From Candidatus Omnitrophota bacterium (lineage in GTDB: Bacteria; Omnitrophota; Gorgyraeia; Gygaellales; Profunditerraquicolaceae), in assembly GCA_963805065.1 (NCBI GenBank), contig CAWDSS010000010.1:275696-339695 (forward strand): DNA of 64,000 nt, read 5' to 3'. The translations under genes were made by a program, and so were the position numbers. Shown here piece after piece: positions 3,914 to 60,309 of the stretch. The notes beneath the pieces are model-generated. The model was not told the origin of the DNA and did not search any database. It saw only the letters and a list, made by a program, of their open reading frames with translations. The stretch's first letter is position 1. Every line of letters begins with the position of its first letter.

Positions 3914-4133
3914 CTTTCATTAGTATGGCTATGGAGGCACCAAAACACATTGTTTGCAATCGAAGATTCCAAATCACATTGATTTGGAATAGATTCTGCG
4001 CCACATTGGTGTTAAGATACCAAAACACATTGTTTTGGTATCTCCGTTATCTTTCATTAATGCAGCTATGGAGGCACCAAAATACATTATTTTGGTGCCG
4101 TAGCCTTTTTTCATTAATGAAAAAAGGCTACGG
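3914..4133 (-). repeat. tandem hairpin-repeat array 1 plus tRNA trailer hairpin (downstream of tRNA-Ser GGA)
   Basis: The palindromic units are 3941-3956 (degenerate), 3966-3990 (ATTCCAAATCACATTGATTTGGAAT), 4016-4042 (GATACCAAAACACATTGTTTTGGTATC) and 4073-4099 (GGCACCAAAATACATTATTTTGGTGCC). A degenerate ATTAAT hairpin lies at 4041-4072, and the perfect trailer palindrome is at 4098-4133. Confidence 0.85.
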
Positions 4134-4215
4134 AGAGGCAGGGATTTGAACCCTGGGACCCTTGCGAGTCATACGCTCTCCAAGCGTACGCATTCAACCG
4201 CTCTGCCACCTCTCC
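4131..4215 (-). tRNA. tRNA-Ser (anticodon GGA)
   Basis: The reverse complement reads GGAGAGG TG GCAGAGCGGTTGAATGC G TACGC TTGGAGA GCGTA, then a long variable arm, then CAGGG TTCAAAT CCCTG CCTCTCC G. It folds as a class II cloverleaf by hand. No CCA is encoded. Confidence 0.85.
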
Positions 4216-4637: not shown

Positions 4638-4753
4638 TCCTGAAATACATTATTTCAGGACTAAGATACCAAAACACATTGTTTTGGGACAAAGAAGCCA
4701 AAATACATTATTTTGGCTTCTCCGTGATTTTTCATTAATGAAAAATCACGGAG
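4638..4753 (-). repeat. tandem hairpin-repeat array 2 plus tRNA trailer hairpin (downstream of tRNA-Ser CGA)
   Basis: The units are 4638-4660 (TCCTGAAATACATTATTTCAGGA), 4669-4687 (CCAAAACACATTGTTTTGG) and 4694-4720 (GAAGCCAAAATACATTATTTTGGCTTC). The trailer palindrome is at 4720-4753 (CTCCGTGATTTTTCATTAATGAAAAATCACGGAG). Confidence 0.85.
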
Positions 4754-4835
4754 AGTGGAGGATTTGAACCTCCGGTCACCTTACGGCGACAACGGTTTTC
4801 GAAACCGCCGCATTCAACCGCTCTGCCAACTCTCC
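4749..4835 (-). tRNA. tRNA-Ser (anticodon CGA)
   Basis: The reverse complement reads GGAGAGT TG GCAGAGCGGTTGAATGC G GCGGT TTCGAAA ACCGT, then a long variable arm, then GGAGG TTCAAAT CCTCC ACTCTCC G. No CCA is encoded. Confidence 0.85.
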
Positions 4836-5192: not shown

Positions 5193-5350
5193 GGCACTGA
5201 AATACATTATTTCAGTTACGCAATAGGCACCAAAATACATTATTTTGGGTCTCAATAGGTACTAAAATATATTATTTTGGGCAACGATAGGCACTGAAAC
5301 ACATTGTTTCAGTGCCACCGCTTAGCTTCATTAATGAAGCTAAGCGGTGG
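5193..5350 (-). repeat. tandem hairpin-repeat array 3 plus tRNA trailer hairpin (downstream of tRNA-Ser TGA)
   Basis: Four units with a 32-33-nt period start at 5193, 5226, 5258 and 5290. One example is GGCACTGAAACACATTGTTTCAGTGCC at 5290-5316. The trailer palindrome is at 5315-5350 (CCACCGCTTAGCTTCATTAATGAAGCTAAGCGGTGG). Confidence 0.85.
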
Positions 5351-5433
5351 GGGTGAGATTTGAACTCACGGAGGGGAGAAATCCCCTCAACAGTTTTCAA
5401 GACTGCCGCTTTCAACCGCTCAGCCACCCCACC
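5345..5433 (-). tRNA. tRNA-Ser (anticodon TGA)
   Basis: The reverse complement reads GGTGGGG TG GCTGAGCGGTTGAAAGC G GCAGT CTTGAAA ACTGT, then a long variable arm, then GTGAG TTCAAAT CTCAC CCCCACC G. No CCA is encoded. Confidence 0.85.
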
Positions 5434-18488: not shown

Positions 18489-20949
18489 CTAAAATCCGTG
18501 ACTTGCGCTGAAATGCAACCTTCCGTTGCCTCTATGGTCTTGCCCGGTCAGCTTATTCATAGGGATACCATAATCGAGCATTATTGGCCCGATGGGTGTC
18601 TTAATTCTCACTCCCAGGCCAACGCCTGTCTTAAAACCGCCTTGGCCGATATCGCCTAATTTAGACCAGACATTACCCGTATCGCAAAATGCTGCCAATT
18701 TAAGGAAGCTCATTAACGGATATGTATATTCTATATTTCCTACGATCATGGCGTCGCCACCCAAAGGATCAGAAGAAGCAGGATCAATAGGCCCGACTTC
18801 TCTTTCTTTATAGCCTCTTATCGTATAAGCGCCTCCTGCAAAGAATCTCTCATATATGGGGATTTTTTCTGAGTTCGAATAAGGCTCAGCTGCTCCTACC
18901 CGAGCCCTTACCTCAAGGACAGAATCTTTTGGCAACGGGAAATAATGCGACGCCCTGCCAAAAAATTTCCAGTAATCCTTATCCCCGCCAAAAGGCCCGC
19001 CTGCCAACTCAAAAGACCCATTTAACAAATTTCCTCTTTTTGGATCAAACACATTATCCCTGTTATCGAAAGTAAGGCTGGGGGTTAAACTGCTTATAAC
19101 ATTCTTTCCAGCTTCGCTTTTAAGATCATCACTTGCCGCATCATCTACATTCCTGATATCTATGCTGTCAAGCCGATAGGTTATGTCTGACCTGAGATAT
19201 TCGGATAATTCTTTGCCTAAACGTAAATCCCCTCCCGTAACATCCTCATCATAACCATAACCGACATCCTCATTTTGTTTATGAGTTCGGCGGTAGGCAT
19301 CAAAGCCAAATGATACAGGATAGTCAAAAACCCAGGGATTAGTAAAACTTAACTCGAAACCCGAACTAACGGTTCCGGTGGAAGCGCGGAGCCTTAAGTC
19401 CTGGCCGGCCCCGGTAAAATAAGGAAAATTCTTCCAGTCAAAATTCTTCTGCTCTACCTCTATGAATCCGATTAATTGATCAACGGTGCTGTATCCGCCT
19501 CCAAAGCTGAATGCTCCTGTCTTTGCCTCTTTTACCTCAACAATCAAATCCTTCTTATCGGGTACCTGTGTGTTTTGGGTATCGTAATTTATTTCTTCAA
19601 AAAAGCCTAAGTTTTGCAACCTCTCTCTGCTGCGCCGTAGCTTATCTCCGTCGAACCTTTCGCCGGGGTGTATCCTTAATTCTCTGCGGATGACCACATC
19701 GCGGGTTTTTATGTTCCCGCGTATCTTTATCTTATCCAGATATGCGATGGTATTTTCTGTTATATTATAGGCGATATCGACCCTGCCTGTATACGCATTT
19801 ACAGAACTGGTATCTTCTACCTGGCAGGAAATGTAGCCTTTATCAAAATACAAGCTCTGGATGTTGGCTACATCCTCTTTTAAAGCATCGTTGCTGAAGA
19901 CCTTGCCAGGGATACATTCTTTTAATTTTGCCAAAATATCTTTCTCTGGAATATCCTTATTCCCCGGAAACAGTGATATTGCCTACAAGATACTTTTTGC
20001 CTTCAACTATTGTAATGTAGACAAATAATAAATACGCCCTTTTTACATCGGGCTTAACTTCATATTCAACTGTTGCGTCGGTAAAGCCCTGCCTGTGATA
20101 AAATGACCTTAAGCGTTCGATGTCTTCCTTTAATACCTCATCCTTAAGCACCCCGGCATTAAATAACCAGGCGCTTTTTGTCTTCATTAATTTTAGCAAG
20201 CGGCCTGAACTAAATGCTTTATTGCCTTCTGTAACAATTTTTTTAATCCTTACTTTCTTGCCTTCGCTCACATTAAATTGTATATTTGCTTTAGTGCCTT
20301 CTTTGTTTAAATCTATCTTGTAATCGACCTCGGCCTGGCTAAAACCCATTTTCTCATACATCTGTTTAAGCGTGCGCACATCCGCAACAAGACTAGGCTG
20401 ATCGAGATACTGTTTTTCTTTTGACTTCAGTTGCTCTTTGAGTTTCTCGTCCTTCATGGTAATACGCCTGATGCCGGAAAAATTAATCTTATCAATTATC
20501 GGCCGTTCTACAACCGAAACTATGACTTTAATACCATCTTTGTAATCTTCGGTATCTATTTTTATATCGCTGAAAAAACCCAAAAGGTATAGCCTTTTTA
20601 AATCATCACTGGTAATATTTTCTTTGTAGGAGGCACCTATTCGGGTTTTCATTTTGGAAATAATGTTGTTGGTGCTTATGGATTTATTCCCTTTGACTTC
20701 AATCGCTGTAACTAATTTTTCTTCCTTTGGGGCAGTTGTGGTAGTAGAAGGTTCTTGAACTGAGGGTTGATCTTGGGCGAAGGATAAATGACAAATGAAT
20801 ACCAAAGCACAAATTACAAAACTTAAAGAAAAGGGGACGTTTCTATTTTTCTGCTGATTAGGAGACGTTAAAAATAGAAACGTCCCCTTTATTTTGGGTG
20901 TTGAATTGCCTGAATTAAAGGCTTTATTTTGACATTGGGATTTTGTCAT
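18489..20949 (-). pseudogene. bamA: outer-membrane protein assembly factor BamA, interrupted by one frameshift
   Basis: ORF 19957..20949 holds the signal peptide and POTRA repeats. ORF 18489..19934 holds the last POTRA and a 16-strand-type barrel ending HFSASHGF. The frames join if one G is removed from GGGG (plus-strand CCCC 19962-19965): ...NITVSGNKDIPEKDILAKLKE... Confidence 0.85.
20830..20890 (-). terminator. GGGGACG hairpin family copy 1 (terminator-like)
   Basis: A 21-bp stem, AAAGGGGACGTTTCTATTTTT / AAAAATAGAAACGTCCCCTTT, with a 19-nt loop. On the minus strand it is followed by TCTTTAAGTTTTG. It lies inside the annotated N-terminal extension of bamA, downstream of dnaB. Confidence 0.55.
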
Positions 20950-24401: not shown

Positions 24402-24473
24402 CGTATTAGCTATCAGCTTTCAGTCATCAGCTTTCAGCTGAAAGCTGGCAGCTGATAGCTGAGAGCTAAATTC

Positions 24474-28891: not shown

Positions 28892-28920
28892 TTATGAACC
28901 CAATTTAAAAACTAGTAAAT

Positions 28921-28981
28921 AATGGGGACGTTTCTATTTTTATGCTAATCTGGAGACGTTAAAAATAGAAACGTCCCCATT
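28921..28981 (-). terminator. GGGGACG hairpin family copy 2 (terminator-like)
   Basis: AATGGGGACGTTTCTATTTTT / AAAAATAGAAACGTCCCCATT. It starts 3 nt after the transketolase stop, and on the minus strand it is followed by ATTTACTAGTTTTT. Confidence 0.6.
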
Positions 28982-28984
28982 ATT

Positions 28985-29914
28985 TTAAGAAGCGATTCTT
29001 AATGCTACTTTTTCTATATCGGCGCTTGTAAGATTATACTCTTTTAAAAGTTCCTCGGGTTCTCCTGACTGGCCATATCTGTTTTTTATGCCCAGGCACA
29101 TTACTTTGGTGGGATGATTCTCCACAACAATTTCATCAACTGCCGAGGCAAGGCCTCCGATAACTGAATGTTCTTCGCATACCAAAATGGCACGGGTTTC
29201 TTTGGCTGCTTTTAATATTGCCTGCGCATCAAAAGGCCTGATAGTATGAATATTAATAACACGCACCTTTATACCTTTATTAAGAAGGTTTTTAGCGGCA
29301 ACAAGCGCCTCTTGAACCATAATCCCGCAGGCGACGATTGCTAAATCATTTCCTTCAGTCAAAACCTGTGCCTTGCCTAATATAAACTCACCCTTGTTTT
29401 CAATGGTAGTAACTTTAGGCCTGCCCAGGCGTACATAAAAGGGGCCCTTATTATTTGCAGCAGCCATTATAGCATCTCTTGTTTGAGGCCCGTCGCAGGG
29501 GACAATTATGTTCATATTCGGTATTACCCTCATAAGTGCTATATCTTCCAAGGCCTGGTGGCTTGCTCCGTCAGGCCCGACGGTGATACCGGCATGCGTA
29601 GCTACTATTTTAATATTGAAGTTATTGTAACAAACGGAATTTCTCACCTGATCCCAGGCCCTTCCAGCTGCAAATATGGCAAAAGTGGAAGCAAAAACTG
29701 TTTTTTGACAGCTGGCAATGCCAGCTGCAGTTGCCATCATGTTTTGTTCAGCTACACCGAAATTAAAAAATCTATCTGGGAATTCTTTGGCAAACAGGCC
29801 TGTGCGAGTTGAGCCGGATAAATCAGCATCCAGAACGACTATGTTCTTATTAGCCTTTCCTAGCTCGACCAGGGCCTTGCCGTAAACATCACGTTGATAA
29901 AGTTGCTCTGCCAT
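28985..29914 (-). CDS. transketolase, C-terminal (pyrimidine-binding) subunit
   Basis: 309 aa: FGVAEQNMMATAAG, HAGITVGPDGASHQALEDIA. It is start/stop-coupled to the N-terminal subunit. Confidence 0.9.
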   Translation of the reverse strand: MAEQLYQRDVYGKALVELGKANKNIVVLDADLSGSTRTGLFAKEFPDRFFNFGVAEQNMMATAAGIASCQKTVFASTFAIFAAGRAWDQVRNSVCYNNFNIKIVATHAGITVGPDGASHQALEDIALMRVIPNMNIIVPCDGPQTRDAIMAAANNKGPFYVRLGRPKVTTIENKGEFILGKAQVLTEGNDLAIVACGIMVQEALVAAKNLLNKGIKVRVINIHTIRPFDAQAILKAAKETRAILVCEEHSVIGGLASAVDEIVVENHPTKVMCLGIKNRYGQSGEPEELLKEYNLTSADIEKVALRIAS

Positions 29915-32002: not shown

Positions 32003-32887
32003 TTAATAGATTACTTTATTCAACGGGTACTCAATAATTCCCTGGGCACCTGCTTTTTTTAATTCGGGAATTAAAACCCGTACAATTTTTTCGTCAATCA
32101 CTGTTTCAATAGCGAACCAGCCTTCTTCCGAAAGCCCGGATATAGTCGGCCTTTTTAAAGCCGGCAGCTTCTTAATAACTTTTCCTAAATCCTGCTTTCT
32201 AACGTTCATTTTTAGTCCGACCTTCTCTTCTGCACTGATTGCGCCCTTCAAGAGAAGCGCAATTTGTTCCATTTTTGATTTTTTCCACTCTTGCTTATAG
32301 GAATCCTTATTGGCGATGAATCGGGTAGTAGATTCACAAAGTGTGGCGATTTCTACCAGTTTATTTGCCCGAAGGCTCTTTCCGGTTTCTGTCAATTCCA
32401 CAATCGCATCCACTAATCCAGCGCTTACCTTTACTTCGGTTGCTCCCCAGCTGAATTCCACATCTACATTTACTTTGTTTTTCTTAAAATAATCCTTGGT
32501 AACGTTGACCAACTCTGTGGCAATGCGCTTTCCGGAAAGATCTTTAAGGGATTTAATCCCTGAATCCTGCGGCACTGCCAAAACCCACCTTACCTTGCTT
32601 AAACTCTGTTTGGCATAAACCAAGTCAGTTATCGTTACGCAATCCGACTTATTCTCTAGTATCCAGTCATTACCGGTAATCCCGCAATCCAAAGCCCCAT
32701 CCTGGACATACCGAGACATTTCTTGCGCACGCAGCAAAACCGGCTCAATCTCCGGGTCATCTATCGACGGAAAATACGAGCGCTCGCTGGGCAGGGAAAC
32801 ATTGAAACCTGCTTTTTTGAACATTTTAAAGGTGGCCTCCTGGAGGCTCCCCTTTGGTAACCCTAATTTCAGCACTTTATCGCTCAT
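32003..32887 (-). CDS. hisG: ATP phosphoribosyltransferase, long form
   Basis: 294 aa: [21 protein letters not shown], and a C-terminal regulatory domain is present. Confidence 0.9.
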
Positions 32888-33027
32888 TTTTGATTATCCT
32901 TTTTAGTTCCAGTTTAAATTTCTGGCGCGAATATATTAACAGCCCAGGTTTTTCTCAACTTTATGGGCCTCTTTTTCACGGAGAATCATTATAGCGGTCT
33001 TACGGCGTTTTGTAAAGTAAAAAGTTC

Positions 33028-33167
33028 TAATGAATCTGTCGGTTTTCTCACCAATGGACGGGTCCTGCCTGCCAAGCCACCTCGCCGTGCTCGCTCACGC
33101 TCCGCGCGGCAAGGGCTTCGGCTTGTCAGTCACCCGTCCATACGCTTGAAAACCGCCAGATTCATTA
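33028..33167. repeat. GC-rich long-hairpin element with 19-20-nt terminal inverted repeats, copy 1 (140 nt)
   Basis: The ends are TAATGAATCTGTCGGTTTTC ... GAAAACCGCCAGATTCATTA. Interior pairings are ATGGACGGGT/ACCCGTCCAT, GCCAAGCC/GGCTTCGGC and GCCGTGC/GCGCGGC. The ends are shared with 46018-46243. Confidence 0.7.
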
Positions 33168-33198
33168 ATATAATGGGGGCGGTGGCTGAATTTTGTAA

Positions 33199-33228: not shown

Positions 33229-33343
33229 AATGAAGACATAACTTACGGAGCGTAAGCGAACGTAAGTTATTGTCTGAATTTGTCCCCGCGTTTTGCTTCG
33301 CAAAGCGAAGCAGCGGGGATTAATTCGCAAAAAAGGAGCAGGT
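33229..33343 (+). promoter_or_regulatory. conserved two-hairpin 5' leader element, copy a
   Basis: It starts AATGAAGACATAACTTACGG. Hairpin 1 pairs 33238-33247 with 33261-33270. Hairpin 2 is TCCCCGC...GCGGGGA, pairing 33283-33289 with 33313-33319. An SD and ATG follow. It is homologous to the reverse complement of 38489-38620. Confidence 0.6.
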
Positions 33344-34753
33344 ATGCTAAAAGCGTTACGCAATAAGAAAACGGCAAGAAAAATATGGATTGTCCTGGCA
33401 ATTATAATTGTTCCGGCATTTGTCCTCTGGGGCCTGGGAGGAGCTTTACGCAGCAAGCAGGAAGCAGCTTATGTAGGCAGGATTTTCGGCCGGGAAATCT
33501 CAAGCATGGAATATAAAGACGCCCTGATTGCCGTGACAAATACAGCAATCATGCAGTATGGTGATAAATTACCCGAGGTACAAAAATACCTTAACTTAGA
33601 GGCCCAAGCATGGGAAAGGCTTATTCTACTACATGAGACAAAGTGGCGTAAAATTCGGGCGAGCGATAAAGAAGTTATTGAACTGATTGAGGCTTATCCG
33701 TTTTTTCAGCGTAACGGACAATTTGATAACCGGATATATTCACAAACTCTGCGCTATTTATTCAGGATTCAACCCCGTGCCTTCGAAGAGCAGACGCGGC
33801 AAAACATAATGATCGCCAAGCTGTTCAATCAGGTTACCCGCAAAATCAACATAACCCCGGAAGAACTAAAGGAGGAATACAGAAAAGCAAATGAAGAGAT
33901 AAGCCTTTATTACATAGCGGCCTTACCTTCTGATTTCGCAAAACAAATTAACCCCAGCGATCAGCAGATCAAGGATTACTATGAGAAAAATTCCCTTGAA
34001 TTTAAACTTCCCCCTTCCTTCAACCTCGATTACGTATCTGTCGATTCCGAGGAAAAGGCAAAAAATATAATTACGGGCTTATCCAAAAAAGAAGACTTGG
34101 GAAAGATAGCAAAGAATTTGGGGCTAACCCTCAAGGAAACCGGATTGTTCAAACAGACAGACCCTATACCCGGCATTGGCTGGTCTCCGGAAATCGCAAG
34201 CCTGATTTCCAAATTAAATATCGGGCAATGCAGCCAGCCGATACTCTATGAAAAGAATTACTACTTTTTAAGGCTCAAGGATAAAAAAGAAGCTTATATC
34301 CCGGAATTCGATAAAATAAAAGATAAGGTAAAAGAAACGGTTATAAAGAAGGGTTCTGGTGAATTGGCAAAGAAAAATTCCCAAGACTGCCTGAAGTACA
34401 TGAAAGAATTATACAAACAAAATCCTAAACTTGTTGATTTTGGAGTATGTGCAAATAAATTCAACTTAAAGTCAGACTCTACAAAACTGTTTAAATTCGG
34501 CAGCTATATTGAGGGGATAGGTGCATCTGATGATTTCTGGAACGCCGGCGCTAGCCTAAAGCCGCAAGAGTTTAGTGATGTAATCGCTATTCCTATCGGA
34601 TTTTTTATCGTAAAGGTTAAGGACAGGACTGTAACTGACGGGAGCAAATTCGAAAAGGAAAAAACTGACTTCGCACAAAAATTACTATCTCAAAAGAAAC
34701 AGGCGTATTTTTCTTCGTTTGTAGACGACCTGAAGAAAAAAACGCAGATTTAA
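33344..34753 (+). CDS. periplasmic chaperone / PPIase-like protein (PpiD/SurA family)
   Basis: The start is moved to MLKALRNKKTARKIW, preceded by AAAGGAGCAGGT. It has an N-terminal TM anchor and SurA-N-like and parvulin-like segments. It is the only convincing plus-strand gene. Confidence 0.7.
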   Translation: MLKALRNKKTARKIWIVLAIIIVPAFVLWGLGGALRSKQEAAYVGRIFGREISSMEYKDALIAVTNTAIMQYGDKLPEVQKYLNLEAQAWERLILLHETKWRKIRASDKEVIELIEAYPFFQRNGQFDNRIYSQTLRYLFRIQPRAFEEQTRQNIMIAKLFNQVTRKINITPEELKEEYRKANEEISLYYIAALPSDFAKQINPSDQQIKDYYEKNSLEFKLPPSFNLDYVSVDSEEKAKNIITGLSKKEDLGKIAKNLGLTLKETGLFKQTDPIPGIGWSPEIASLISKLNIGQCSQPILYEKNYYFLRLKDKKEAYIPEFDKIKDKVKETVIKKGSGELAKKNSQDCLKYMKELYKQNPKLVDFGVCANKFNLKSDSTKLFKFGSYIEGIGASDDFWNAGASLKPQEFSDVIAIPIGFFIVKVKDRTVTDGSKFEKEKTDFAQKLLSQKKQAYFSSFVDDLKKKTQI

Positions 34754-38488: not shown

Positions 38489-38620
38489 TTAATGTTAGCT
38501 CCTGTAGTTTCCCCGCTGCTTCGCTTTGCTTCGCAAAGCGCGGGGATTAATTCAGCCATAAACTTATGTTCGTTTACCTGCCTGCCAGCAGGCAGGCACT
38601 CCATAAGTTTAGGCTTCATT
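38489..38620 (-). promoter_or_regulatory. conserved two-hairpin 5' leader element, copy b
   Basis: The minus strand reads AATGAAGCCTAAACTTATGGAG...CATAAGTTTAT GGCTGAATTAA TCCCCGCG...CAGCGGGGA AACTACAGGAGC. It aligns with 33229-33343, but hairpin 1 carries an extra GCCTGCCTGCTGGCAGGCAGG palindrome in its loop. Confidence 0.6.
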
Positions 38621-45278: not shown

Positions 45279-45998
45279 TTAAAGTAAATAATCCTGTTTT
45301 ATCCTTTTAACGCTTTTAAAGATATTGGTTTTTATTTCGGGGCAGGTTCTTTTCAAATCGCTGATAATCTTTGCCATTTTCGTGCGGTTGGAAATTATGG
45401 AATTGGGGCAAGCGCAGGTTTCAAGCGGAAGTTTTTCTTCTTTGGCAAAGCGCTTAGTCATATATTCTTCTACATAGGCAAGTGGACGGATAATAGTAAT
45501 TTTCCCTTTAAACAATTCCTGCTTGGGCGCCATGGCTGAAATTTCTCCCTGGAAAAATAAGTTCAAAAGAATTGTTTCTACGATATCATCCTTATGATGA
45601 CCCAGGGCAACTTTAGTGCAGCCAAAACGGTTAGCTACTTCAAATAAGGCTTTCCTTCTATTCCAAGAACACCAAAAACAATTTATGTCTTTCTTGTTAG
45701 TTTTTTTTAATACATCAACTTTCTCAATATGATATTTGACGCCTATTTTCTTGAAATATTTCACTAACTTTTTGGCGCAGGAACGCGGATAACCCAAATC
45801 AATATGCACAGCCAAAATATCATATTTTATGGGCACAAATTTCTTCCGGTCATGCAATATGCGTAGCAGCGTAAGGCTATCCTTGCCGCCTGAAACTGCC
45901 ACCGCAATCTTATCGCCTTCGGAGAGCATCTTGTAATCCATAATCGCCCTCCCTATGCGCTTAGAAATATAAAACTCCGGACCTTGTAGAACTGCCAT
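45279..45998 (-). CDS. ttcA: PP-loop ATPase, tRNA 2-thiocytidine synthase TtcA family
   Basis: 239 aa with the PP-loop VAVSGGKDSLTLL and Cys motifs CFWCSW and CACPN. Confidence 0.8.
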   Translation of the reverse strand: MAVLQGPEFYISKRIGRAIMDYKMLSEGDKIAVAVSGGKDSLTLLRILHDRKKFVPIKYDILAVHIDLGYPRSCAKKLVKYFKKIGVKYHIEKVDVLKKTNKKDINCFWCSWNRRKALFEVANRFGCTKVALGHHKDDIVETILLNLFFQGEISAMAPKQELFKGKITIIRPLAYVEEYMTKRFAKEEKLPLETCACPNSIISNRTKMAKIISDLKRTCPEIKTNIFKSVKRIKQDYLL

Positions 45999-46017
45999 TT
46001 TAAACCTTTCTATCGTC

Positions 46018-46243
46018 TAATGAATCTGTCGGTTTTCTCGCTCAGCACGATTTTGCCCCTTTGGGGCACGCCAATGATCTTTCGTTCTTCGGCGGCTGCT
46101 GAACTCGTCGCATTTGCTCTAGCAAATGCTCCTCAAACAGCATCGCCGTGCCAGTGTTGTCGCTTCGCTCCACTGGCATTCCCTCATCACTCAAGCTCCA
46201 TTGGCTAAAATCGTGATTCGCTCGAAAACACGCCAGATTCATT
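46018..46243. repeat. GC-rich long-hairpin element with terminal inverted repeats, copy 2 (226 nt)
   Basis: The ends are TAATGAATCTGTCGGTTTTC ... GAAAACACGCCAGATTCATT. The interior is branched: CACGATTTT/AAAATCGTG, GCCCC-TTT-GGGGC, GCATTTGC-TCTA-GCAAATGC, GCCAGTG/CACTGGC. It ends 20 nt upstream of the ttcA start. Confidence 0.7.
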
Positions 46244-46288
46244 TTTGCTATAACGCTATAGCTATATTTATAGTTCGGGTGTTATATC

Positions 46289-47263
46289 CTAAATGTAGGA
46301 TTTATACATAGGTTCGCTTCTTATAAATTGGCGATCTTTTGAAATTATAACCTCTTGAAATGAATAACTTTTTTCCTCGTGTGTTTCTAGTAATAGCTTT
46401 ATTTTGATATCTTTTTTAAAACTCAAAGTGATATGATCAAAAACTGTTGGAGAATTTGGATATAAAGGTCTCCGAAGAAGCTCAAACTGAAAAGCTTTTA
46501 TGCAATTAGAATTTATACTGGTAACATCAGTACTCTTTTCACTTTTAATGATTACATTTGAATCTTGACCTTCATGAAGTCTAAAGGTTAAAATTGAAGT
46601 TAAATGAGTTCCGGGTTTATTACCAAAATTATTGTAAACAACTCTTAACTTACCCTCTATAGAATCTTCTTTTTCCTCCCAAGTTTCTGGTTCTAGATTA
46701 ATGTTAATCCGAGGTATTATTTTTTCCTCAATCAGCTTCAAAGTTTCAACAAAAGGGATTTGTGTAGTCTCATCTCCTATCCTACGATAAGCGCGATCTT
46801 CTAATCTTGAGAAATAAACAACATTCAAATCTATTGGATGAATTTCTATAATAAAAATGTTTTCTTTCTTTTGGATTTCGATCTTCTCAATTTCAACTGA
46901 TGGGAAAGTAGAATAAAGAGGAATAGAAGTCAAATTGGCTATTATCCATTTTCTTATTTGATCATCATCTTTAATCAATTCTTCCTTGATGGGGATAATA
47001 TCTATGGGAAATCCATCTTTTTCACTCAACCCCAAAAATAAGACGCCTCCTTCTGAAATAAATTTATTGAGGAACCCAACTAAGGGCTTGATGATTATTT
47101 GTTTAGAATGGTCATCACGTATTGATATATTCTTAAATGTTTTACATTCAAATATCGTTGATTCTTTATATTTGCAATCTATTATATTATTTTTTATATC
47201 TACTTTATTAATATTATTCTCTTTTCCAAATATATCTTTCATTAATCTTCTTGAATTCATCAT
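46289..47263 (-). CDS. AlbA_2 (Schlafen-like divergent-AAA/DNA-binding) domain protein with unknown C-terminal domain
   Basis: 324 aa and very AT-rich. The N-terminal half fits the AlbA_2 pattern (ESTIFECKTFKN...LVGFLNKFISEGGVLFLGLSEKDG...IFIIEIHPIDLNVVYFS..DRAYRRIGDETTQIP). The C-terminal ~140 aa are unassigned. Confidence 0.55.
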   Translation of the reverse strand: MMNSRRLMKDIFGKENNINKVDIKNNIIDCKYKESTIFECKTFKNISIRDDHSKQIIIKPLVGFLNKFISEGGVLFLGLSEKDGFPIDIIPIKEELIKDDDQIRKWIIANLTSIPLYSTFPSVEIEKIEIQKKENIFIIEIHPIDLNVVYFSRLEDRAYRRIGDETTQIPFVETLKLIEEKIIPRININLEPETWEEKEDSIEGKLRVVYNNFGNKPGTHLTSILTFRLHEGQDSNVIIKSEKSTDVTSINSNCIKAFQFELLRRPLYPNSPTVFDHITLSFKKDIKIKLLLETHEEKSYSFQEVIISKDRQFIRSEPMYKSYI

Positions 47264-47578
47264 TTATCTCCTTCCATAAATTTTATGCGTTTCGCTGAAG
47301 ACGCTCCAGAAAATTTTCGCTGCGTAAGCGGGTGACTTGGCTGATTTCCGAGCAGGGCATGGAGGCAAGGAGCGGGCACGGTTCCCGCATCCGGCTCCTA
47401 AATTAAAAAAATGGATTTATACACGGCCCGGATGCGGGAGAGCGACGCAGCCGACCTGAGCGAAGTTTTGCCTCGCAGGGGCAAAACGAGCGTCCCTGCG
47501 AGGAAACAGCCAAGGCAACACCCGGCTCTAAAGGATGAGCCGGTGCGCCGCCTCCTGCGGCGGGACCCGCAAAAAAAG
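47264..47578. other. GC-rich, hairpin-dense non-coding region (candidate structured RNA or 5' leader)
   Basis: A 12-bp stem pairs 47383-47394 with 47428-47439. Two mutually exclusive hairpins pair 47465-47472 with 47480-47487 and 47471-47480 with 47494-47503. A further stem is CCGGCTC-N8-GAGCCGG. There is no credible ORF. Confidence 0.5.
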
Positions 47579-60039: not shown

Positions 60040-60104
60040 CGTACACTACCTATTATTATAACTTACTGTGTAACGTTTAAGGTGTAATGTGTAACGTGGG
60101 TAAA

Positions 60105-60169
60105 GAAAAGGGGACGTTTCTATTTTTCTTCTAATTAGGAAACGTTAAAAATAGAAACGTCCCCTTTTC
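60105..60169 (-). terminator. GGGGACG hairpin family copy 3 (terminator-like)
   Basis: A 23-bp stem, GAAAAGGGGACGTTTCTATTTTT / AAAAATAGAAACGTCCCCTTTTC. On the minus strand a T-rich tail (TTTACCC) follows. It is embedded in a larger imperfect GTGTAA-word palindrome. Confidence 0.6.
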
Positions 60170-60309
60170 TTTACTTTATTTTGCATTACACTGGCATTAC
60201 ACACTTTACACATTAAACGATTCTATGTGCCTATTTCTGAAATGAAACCAGCCTTTGGCGTTTTGGTTTCATTTCACCCTTTCCTCTGGAAAGGACCTTT
60301 ATGAAGTTA

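Follow-up and report, generated by a model that had tools for sequence, protein, structure and literature searches.

ERIC/IRU sequences are imperfect palindromes of ~127 bp that occupy intergenic, usually transcribed regions in both orientations, with no known transposase and no clear target-site duplication (TSD). Correia elements (CREE) of Neisseria are miniature inverted-repeat transposable elements (MITEs) with 26-bp terminal inverted repeats; their hairpins are substrates of RNase III, and the elements can create promoters. The hairpins of REP, ERIC, and Correia sequences are cut by RNase III or block exonucleases. A family comparable to these repeats is described here from a Candidatus Omnitrophota genome, in which a stretch of 64,000 nucleotides (GenBank assembly GCA_963805065.1, contig CAWDSS010000010.1, positions 275,696 to 339,695 of the forward strand; hereafter the window) contains two long-hairpin elements, copy 1 upstream of hisG and copy 2 upstream of ttcA. 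Both loci are probably copies of one modular, non-coding, mobile, intergenic palindromic repeat family of Candidatus Omnitrophota, and a kinship in kind with MITEs, ERIC, BIMEs, and Correia elements is likewise considered fairly probable. As judged from Rfam, the searchable literature, and phage and plasmid collections, the family has not been described previously; Omnitrophota form a large, almost uncultured phylum, the repeat content and noncoding RNAs (ncRNAs) of which are apparently undescribed.

Two occurrences of the 24-mer TCTAATGAATCTGTCGGTTTTCTC, both on the plus strand, and no others are present in the window (33026-33049 and 46016-46039), and dinucleotide-preserving shuffles yielded no match to it. 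Each occurrence is followed downstream by a nearly complementary partner arm (Table 1). The first-pass annotation of this stretch, prepared from the letters alone, had reported two elements in the same orientation that begin with the same 24 nt and end with the near reverse complement; all of this is confirmed, although the shared sequence starts 2 nt to the left of the positions given there. The folds are also as described: copy 1, folded as a 142-nt single strand (−74.1 kcal/mol, z = −10.4), is an almost unbranched hairpin, and copy 2, folded as a 229-nt single strand (−91.1 kcal/mol, z = −8.95), is branched, with no shuffle reaching as low an energy in either case. The claim that GC-rich elements lie in an AT-rich genome is correct for the elements (57% GC in copy 1, 50% in copy 2) and overstated for the genome, which, like the window, has 41% GC and is only moderately AT-rich. 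The neighboring genes, hisG and ttcA, were named correctly, and their distances require small corrections, from 141 to 139 nt between the start of hisG and the start of copy 1, and from 20 to 17 nt between the end of copy 2 and the start of the longest ttcA open reading frame (ORF). A public protein identical to the TtcA of the window (P0002) is annotated 19 codons shorter (220 aa), so the latter gap may be 74 nt rather than 17.

Further members of the family were sought by scanning one genome per species with a pattern matching both arms, which returned mostly single chance matches, and by a metagenome scan, which added 120 further loci. Inverted pairs of arms 60-300 nt apart, the search for which had been proposed in the first-pass annotation, were found in many metagenome-assembled genomes (MAGs) of Candidatus Omnitrophota and in metagenome contigs, which refutes the possibility raised there that the termini are limited to two places and unconserved in relatives. 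A few of the element-bearing MAGs are labelled Planctomycetales, yet they encode proteins that closely resemble those of the window. The affiliation of the window with Omnitrophota is confirmed by TtcA homologs. The surveys of arms and neighbors cover about 240 loci (~1.6 Mb), and the non-redundant set comprises 73 elements with lengths of 82-300 nt, about 60 of which measure 200-300 nt, the size of the type A element described below. At least 3-5 copies are present per MAG and two in the 64-kb window, where the covariance model of type A (CM R1) finds no additional copies.

In every variant, the module that stays constant and defines the family is the basal stem. Its inverted termini of ~19-20 bp follow the pattern AATGAATCTG-Y-CG-N-TTTTC ... 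GAAAA-N-CG-C-CAGATTCATT, and the arms are conserved in every copy over 19-20 bp, or over 28 bp when the loop motif is counted. In nearly all copies, 5'-TTTTC-TCGCTCA is found inside the stem, with ATTCGCTC-GAAAA-3' opposite to it, and because the TCGCTCA and ATTCGCTC blocks are direct repeats rather than complements, they constitute a conserved internal loop. At position 11 of the stem, 44 of 50 copies have a pyrimidine-pyrimidine mismatch, flanked by positions with 98-100% Watson-Crick pairing; neither this mismatch nor the internal loop figured in the first-pass annotation. In addition, a GTCGRTTTT motif recurs as a direct repeat close to both ends, and the TCGCTC direct repeat brackets every type of interior.

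The outer module mostly encloses type A, and the remaining elements are minis with internal deletions or contain other palindromic modules (B and E). Type A elements (about 205-280 nt, typically ~235 nt) align end to end, with a branched interior of ~190 nt in which the blocks ACGCCAAUGAUCUUUCG, GGCUGCUGAACUCG, CUCAAACAGCAUCGCC, GGAUUCCC, CUCAAGCU, and GGCUAAAA are invariant and the helices between them vary in sequence. With RNAalifold, 61 pairs were obtained from 13 genomic copies, and compensatory changes are present in 25 of these pairs. CM R1, built from the same 13 copies, assigns copy 2 a score of 242 bits along its entire length and copy 1 a score of 42 bits from the outer module only. 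A refined structure of 63 pairs, including the long-range helix P2, was evaluated on 52 metagenomic copies, where standard pairs fill 93.3% of cells, compared with 81.7% in column shuffles and 31-45% with slid partners. Double-sided changes affect 40 of the 63 pairs, whereas 24.4 are expected and none of 500 shuffles reaches 40; the covariation score of type A is 0.314 versus 0.110. The type A fold is maintained by compensatory changes. Its architecture, which comprises 11 helices, proceeds from the outside inward through the 20-bp stem P1, the TCGCTCA/ATTCGCTC loop, P2 (GTCGRTTTT/AAAAYCGAC), the R/Y position of which covaries among copies, an optional P3, P4, and a rod that ends at a three-way junction bearing two variable hairpins. 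The junction strands GATCTTTCG, CTGAACTCG, CTCAAACAG, GGATTCCC-like, and CTCAAGC of the distal domain are invariant. With its conserved junctions and covariation, the fold is of Rfam quality; a scan against Rfam 15, also proposed in the first-pass annotation, returned only tRNAs in the whole window at the gathering threshold, and copy 2 had no match even at E <= 10. Likewise, no prior description was found in the searchable literature on noncoding RNA or inverted repeats of Omnitrophota/Omnitrophica.

The interior of copy 1 (GACGGGTCCTGCCTGCCAAGCCACCTCGCCGTGC...CACCCGTC, about 85 nt) is a recurring module, designated type B, which forms an almost uninterrupted hairpin with 46 pairs. Type B recurs within the same arms at loci L212, L217, L146 (twice), L167, L196, L221, and L081, and elsewhere it is found without arms in L067 and within a different arm pair in L165. 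Copy 1 is chimeric, and in a relative its site is occupied by type A; the two window copies have the outer module in common and different cargo, type B in copy 1 and type A in copy 2. The first-pass annotation was accordingly right that the two interiors are unrelated to each other, and wrong that they evolve freely, since each belongs to a conserved family, that of copy 2 being common to more than 60 copies. Short forms of 82-155 nt retain the outer helices and lack varying amounts of the distal domain, which indicates internal deletions, and three additional palindromic modules (types C, D, and E) either nest within the arms or adjoin them. An empty stem, with arms around a short loop only, was not encountered among the 73 non-redundant elements. 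Type C looks like a family of its own, a separate conserved palindromic element of about 200 nt (…GCACTGAAAATTTTTGCCGT…CTACGGTTTACTTCGTCGC…) located beside or nested in stem-bounded elements (L237:2490-2720; L099, L003, L033, L034, L124, L135, L166, and L203).

The stem-bounded unit is copied whole to new sites without target duplication, as seen from near-identical copies that stand in unrelated flanks and the similarity of which is bounded by the arm ends. Typical type A pairs are about 75% identical, whether the site is common or not; the elements of L204 and L131 are 94.9% identical in unrelated flanks, several further pairs reach about 90%, and in near-identical pairs the similarity extends from (T)AATGAATCTG to CAGATTCATT(T). 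Between relatives, sites are gained and lost and interiors are exchanged. The site upstream of ttcA is empty in L238, L240, and L241 (TtcA 90%, 83%, and 81% identical), where only 7-58 nt separate the upstream gene from ttcA. In L237 (TtcA 91%), the arms are the same and identically oriented; they stop 18 nt short of the ATG, compared with 17 nt in the window, and surround a type E interior, with a type C module alongside. L239 (TtcA 84%) has a type E module without arms at this site. Upstream of hisG, type B in the window corresponds to a full type A in L026 (HisG 79% identical), with the same orientation and nearly the same spacing to the start codon (139 nt in the window, 138 nt in L026). 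L201 and L144 are 96% identical over the 3' end of ruvB, and the elements downstream differ, a complete type E in L144 and an arm-bounded type A followed by only a 3' remnant of type E in L201. Within the loci selected by their arms, no empty sites were found, as expected from that selection. The proposal of the first-pass annotation, a MITE-like element or a hairpin family recognized by its basal stem, is thus sustained in the constant stem and in the mobile, non-coding, multi-copy nature without TSD, and not in the freely evolving interiors.

Every element is intergenic, often within 1-50 nt of the adjacent genes, and most lie between co-directional genes, with about 10 in sense and 8 in antisense orientation to the flanking genes in the genome set; none of 30 fully resolved metagenome cases falls in a divergent gap. 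Relative to GC skew, 27 and 19 elements have the two orientations (p = 0.30), so that no replication-strand bias is apparent. When the 996 ORFs of element-bearing loci were clustered, only housekeeping families recurred, and the recurrent neighbors ruvB (12 loci), folD, trpS, queA, purM, murJ, and ttcA mark orthologous sites. The 5' flanks are T-rich, the 3' flanks consist of T followed by an A-rich stretch, and the stem stops at them. No TSD was detected over 71 non-redundant copies, among which direct repeats of >=3 nt number 5, barely more than the 1.4 expected from composition, in agreement with the first-pass annotation. The near-identical type A copies of L204, L131, and L215, located in unrelated contexts, share about 35 nt past the 3' arm (TTATTAT..GA.AAATTTT...AAGAATTT), and in this subgroup the copied unit may include a small extra 3' module. 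Protein coding was considered and rejected: the ORF that starts at the ATG of the arm has 8-79 codons over 60 copies, its frame shifts, and the peptides agree only in the arm-encoded MNLSxFSL. In the window, this ATG opens a 62-codon ORF ending in the conserved GGCTAAAA, and spurious ORFs of 60-80 codons overlap most copies.

Evidence of selection and of its symmetry comes from the ruvB site and from the pairs of type A. Downstream of ruvB, sense type A elements start between 1 nt before and 9 nt after the stop codon in five lineages, and they are 67-76% identical, compared with 43-62% at third-codon positions of ruvB, which indicates that the elements are more conserved than near-neutral sites. 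RNA families acting from one strand normally show G·U far above A·C. Here, G·U occupies 46 cells (1.5%) and A·C 38 cells, in 19 and 20 columns, respectively; the alifold consensus energy is similar for both strands, and the G·U:A·C ratio shows no clear flip with orientation to the flanking genes (sense 32:21, antisense 13:12). Watson-Crick complementarity is therefore kept symmetrically on both strands. Possible reasons are that the DNA form is what counts, be it as a cruciform or via one or the other single strand, that either strand becomes transcribed as the family spreads, or that any mismatch is selected against. Simple homogenization of a palindrome is not the whole explanation, given the asymmetric loop and the fixed mismatch.

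Compared with described systems, the family resembles ERIC/IRU in being non-coding and intergenic in both orientations, with an imperfect palindrome conserved while the flanks diverge, in its size variants due to internal indels, in gain and loss between relatives, and in having no known transposase or clear TSD. It differs from ERIC/IRU in phylum and in the absence of sequence similarity, in type A being about twice as long and branched (11 helices, three-way junction) with invariant junction strands, and in the interchangeable interiors within one outer stem with a conserved mismatch. With Correia elements it has in common terminal inverted repeats (about 20-28 bp) that enclose a short body without coding capacity, numerous intergenic copies, and a presumed co-transcription with neighbors into hairpin RNA; the creation of promoters by Correia elements can be likened to the promoter-like site of copy 1 (11/12 consensus match). 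However, duplication of a TA target and an IHF site are characteristic of Correia elements, whereas this family has no consistent TSD, no IHF site was identified in it, and its interior is far more structured and covarying. The modular, mosaic build is that of BIME/REP-REPIN systems and pneumococcal BOX elements: palindromic modules (types A-E) can be combined, nested, or solitary, they occupy operons and the 3' ends of genes and are rare in divergent promoter regions, and no TSD accompanies them. In contrast to REP, there is no short unit of 20-40 nt, the arms are not self-palindromic, a GTAG head is missing, and no RAYT (a Y1 HUH gene that in REPIN-RAYT systems is flanked by the repeats) was found in about 240 loci; in contrast to BIMEs, a 20-bp long-range stem closes the whole element rather than two adjacent REPs, and a replication-strand bias is lacking. 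What separates the family from every one of these repeats is the 235-nt branched, strongly covarying core with invariant junctions, the interchangeable cargos within a single outer stem, and the conserved stem mismatch.

Among mobile element classes, MITEs are matched in terminal inverted repeats, small size, lack of coding, dispersed multiple copies, and insertion polymorphism, and are not matched in TSD (71 copies). Integron attC sites (RYYYAAC ... GTTRRRY, 57-141 bp, in cassette arrays next to intI) have a core that is missing from the arms, and the elements occur one at a time, scattered among housekeeping genes, rather than in arrays. IS200/IS605-type and other strictly single-strand-mobilized (PATE-like) elements lack terminal inverted repeats and have subterminal hairpins, a fixed tetra- or pentanucleotide target on the 5' side, and a strong orientation bias with replication. 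The long inverted termini, the T-rich 5' flank without a fixed word, and the orientation count of 27:19 (p = 0.30) do not agree with these features. Unlike ncRNA families in Rfam, the elements show no G·U excess and no fixed genomic context, occur in both orientations, and are commonly truncated or chimeric; measured against a stand-alone ncRNA, covariation is present (40/63 pairs double-sided), and strand-specific constraint is not (G·U 46 vs A·C 38; both orientations in operons). A phage or plasmid origin was rejected, as blastn gave no match in phage and plasmid collections and the one viral match looked like chance. Likeness to retrons, attC, bridge-RNA/IS110, or Y-RNA was considered and dropped, since genes for a reverse transcriptase, integrase, transposase, or Ro protein are absent nearby and the motifs differ.

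Several observations weigh against the interpretation as a mobile repeat family. No transposase, recombinase, or RAYT gene recurs beside the elements in about 240 loci (~1.6 Mb), and arm pairs separated by up to 6 kb in those loci, like the recurrent neighboring ORFs, revealed no insertion sequence (IS) or autonomous element bounded by these termini, so that an ordinary MITE, one outcome foreseen in the first-pass annotation, is not established. The long arm pairs of L149 (1287 nt), L201 (981 nt), and L190 (3369 nt) were discarded as candidates for such an element, since they represent separate or fragmentary elements with ordinary genes or other modules in the span. The lack of TSD is unusual for a transposase acting on terminal inverted repeats, orientation in the metagenome set leans to sense (32 sense/15 antisense, half-resolved cases included), and occupancy of the ruvB site across lineages near synonymous saturation could mean a function at the host level. 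Invariant unpaired junctions and compensation-saturated stems are, moreover, more like functional RNA than MITE filler. Type A might be a new class of functional structured ncRNA, such as a ribonucleoprotein scaffold, a cis-regulatory or processing element, or a ribozyme, with copies that are paralogous RNA genes; the 20-bp stem would then be a processing stem (e.g., for RNase III) that frees the interior, and mobility would be secondary, as in a 'mobile ncRNA gene'. Such a role would suit the very strong covariation, the branched three-way junction with invariant nucleotides, conservation beyond synonymous sites, the roughly 2:1 sense orientation in the metagenome set, the nearly constant location in transcribed intergenic gaps (divergent gaps 0/30), and a stem mismatch and asymmetric loop that palindrome homogenization would erase, and the class would be new given the lack of an Rfam match. 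It is nevertheless held to be rather unlikely, considering that G·U is rare (1.5%) and not above A·C (46 vs 38 cells), alifold energies are alike on the two strands, about a third of the copies are antisense to tightly packed genes that leave no room for a promoter, flanks that are T-rich upstream and A-rich downstream provide no terminator layout, deletion and cargo-swapped copies persist, and sites are polymorphic between relatives. A further view, regarded as improbable, places type A as a new-class functional RNA on a mobile hairpin cassette, with the stem, mismatch, and TCGCTC loop as docking or processing site and as the handle by which an enzyme moves the cassette or swaps cargos A, B, and E; if true, this would be a bacterial system spreading structured RNAs through operons.

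Symmetric pairing on both strands and the absence of TSD also fit a host or recombination feature acting at the DNA level, in which the arms and TCGCTC would be paired recombinase sites that swap hairpin cassettes, or the element would be a cruciform or single-stranded DNA (ssDNA) hairpin for a domesticated HUH/RAYT-like enzyme. Orthologous sites that keep arms and spacing with different interiors (A versus B at hisG, A versus E at ttcA), the TCGCTC direct repeat around every interior type, the directly repeated GTCGRTTTT near each end, and the occurrence of type B with and without arms point in the same direction. Still, this explanation is quite improbable: about 240 loci contain no empty stem that could serve as a 'landing pad' and no recombinase or RAYT gene recurring nearby, the replication-strand bias that strict ssDNA mechanisms tend to give is absent, the features of REP (20-40 nt units, GTAG head) are absent by inspection, the arms have no integron attC core GTTRRRY, and gene conversion between same-armed copies can explain the exchange of interiors equally well. 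A specific landing-pad model, with insertion of interiors into a simple stem's loop and duplication of TCGCTC in the process, was rejected on the same absence of empty stems. Ordinary intrinsic terminators or chance palindromes without family identity carry next to no probability. Many loci do lie just downstream of stop codons, and TTTTT follows the 3' arm of copy 2, but the terminator scan calls none at either copy, the polarity of the flank consensus is reversed on either strand, and a 235-nt branched fold is no terminator; chance is excluded by shuffle tests and by more than 70 distinct conserved copies.

For the preferred interpretation as a mobile repeat family, a mechanism can be proposed in which a trans-acting transposase or recombinase encoded elsewhere in the genome would recognize the roughly 28-bp ends and move the element, with the mismatch and the directly repeated TCGCTC possibly giving the ends a left-right polarity. 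Interiors could be exchanged through gene conversion between copies with common arms. The location of elements in tight operon gaps suggests co-transcription and folding into long hairpins, and co-transcription with host operons might thus yield RNase III sites or exonuclease barriers. Copy 1, on the basis of a consensus match, may in addition supply a -35 box to the ppiD-like gene. Being abundant within housekeeping operons (ruvB, ttcA, hisG, folD, trpS, and purM), the elements likely shape mRNA processing, operon polarity, and local promoters, and they likely mark hotspots of variable-gene turnover. The family presents a puzzle, being mobile without TSD and yet displaying covariation of riboswitch or ribozyme grade without the G·U signature of RNA, the resolution of which would reveal either a new way to keep a DNA repeat folded or a new mobile RNA class. 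In practice, the covariance model can be used to annotate the elements and to prevent miscalled ORFs. The coordinates of both copies and of the adjacent genes are compiled in Table 1.

Table 1. Features of the two window copies and their neighboring genes (window coordinates).
Feature	Position	Strand	Remark
HisG gene	32003-32887	-	next to copy 1
Copy 1, chimeric type B element	33026-33169	+	outer stem module round type B GC-rich hairpin core
Copy 1 P1 5' arm (AATGAATCTGTCGGTTTTC)	33029-33047	+	
Copy 1 type B core hairpin (GACGGGTCCTGCCTGCC...CACCCGTC)	33057-33138	+	independent module
Copy 1 degenerate loop motif CATACGCTT	33139-33147	+	just before 3' arm
Copy 1 P1 3' arm (GAAAACCGCCAGATTCATT)	33148-33166	+	
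Copy 1 outward promoter-like site, TTGAAA-17 nt-TATAAT	33146-33174	+	consensus match 11/12
PpiD/SurA-like protein gene	33293-34753	+	next to copy 1
PP-loop/TtcA protein gene	45279-45998	-	next to copy 2
Copy 2, canonical full-length type A element	46016-46246	+	CM R1 241.9 bits, E = 6e-74, full model
Copy 2 P1 5' arm	46019-46037	+	position 11 (T at 46029) is the conserved mismatch
Copy 2 internal loop, 5' strand (TCGCTCAG)	46038-46045	+	
Copy 2 P2, 5' strand (CACGATTTT)	46046-46054	+	pairs with 46207-46215 (AAAATCGTG)
Copy 2 P3 hairpin	46055-46067	+	optional, absent from some copies
Copy 2 distal domain	46068-46206	+	P4 (ACGCCAATG/CATTGGCT), then helices 6-8, then three-way junction
Copy 2 junction branches	P7/P8 46091-46148; P9 46149-46178	+	
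Copy 2 internal loop, 3' strand (ATTCGCTC)	46216-46223	+	direct repeat of 5' loop strand, not complement
Copy 2 P1 3' arm (GAAAACACGCCAGATTCATT)	46224-46243	+	
AlbA_2/Schlafen-domain protein gene	46289-47263	-	next to copy 2

In the promoter-like site of copy 1, TTGAAA lies within the 3' arm and TATAAT in the flank, directed at the ppiD-like gene, and a C-to-T change in the arm relative to the consensus converts TCGAAA into TTGAAA. Two more hairpins are located between copy 1 and the start of the ppiD-like gene, at 33241-33257 and 33283-33320, the former of which scored as terminator-like on the minus strand. On the far side of copy 2, a type E-like palindromic module (47476-47570, minus strand) lies between the AlbA_2/Schlafen-domain gene and a GH77 gene, so that the AlbA_2/Schlafen gene is flanked by repeat modules on both sides. 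In L237-L241, other genes or none are found between GH77 and ttcA, which marks this interval as a hotspot of variable genes.

The window contains several other repeats. Three perfect palindromes centered on the 12-mer TTCATTAATGAA (4098-4133, 4719-4754, and 5315-5350) abut the 3' ends of minus-strand tRNA genes (4131-4215, 4749-4835, and 5345-5433), with stems that differ in sequence around a constant center. Joining the two ends of the repeat element (GATTCATT + AATGAATC) would produce exactly this 12-mer, which is not clearly enriched in the other loci (20 occurrences per 1.6 Mb). A separate hairpin family is represented by three copies (20817-20903, 28917-28985, and 60100-60174) with arms of 26-34 bp (GGGGACGTTTCTATTTTT ... 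AAAAATAGAAACGTCCCC) and a loop of 17-19 nt. The stretch 24404-24469 is quasi-palindromic and tandem-like (AGCTATCAGCTTTCAG...CTGAAAGCTGGCAGCTGATAGCT), with several overlapping inverted repeats, and the palindrome CCTGCCTGCCAGCAGGCAGG at 38576-38597 is related to the CCCTGCCTGCCGGCAGGCAGGG motif found near elements in L026, L129, L178, and L186.

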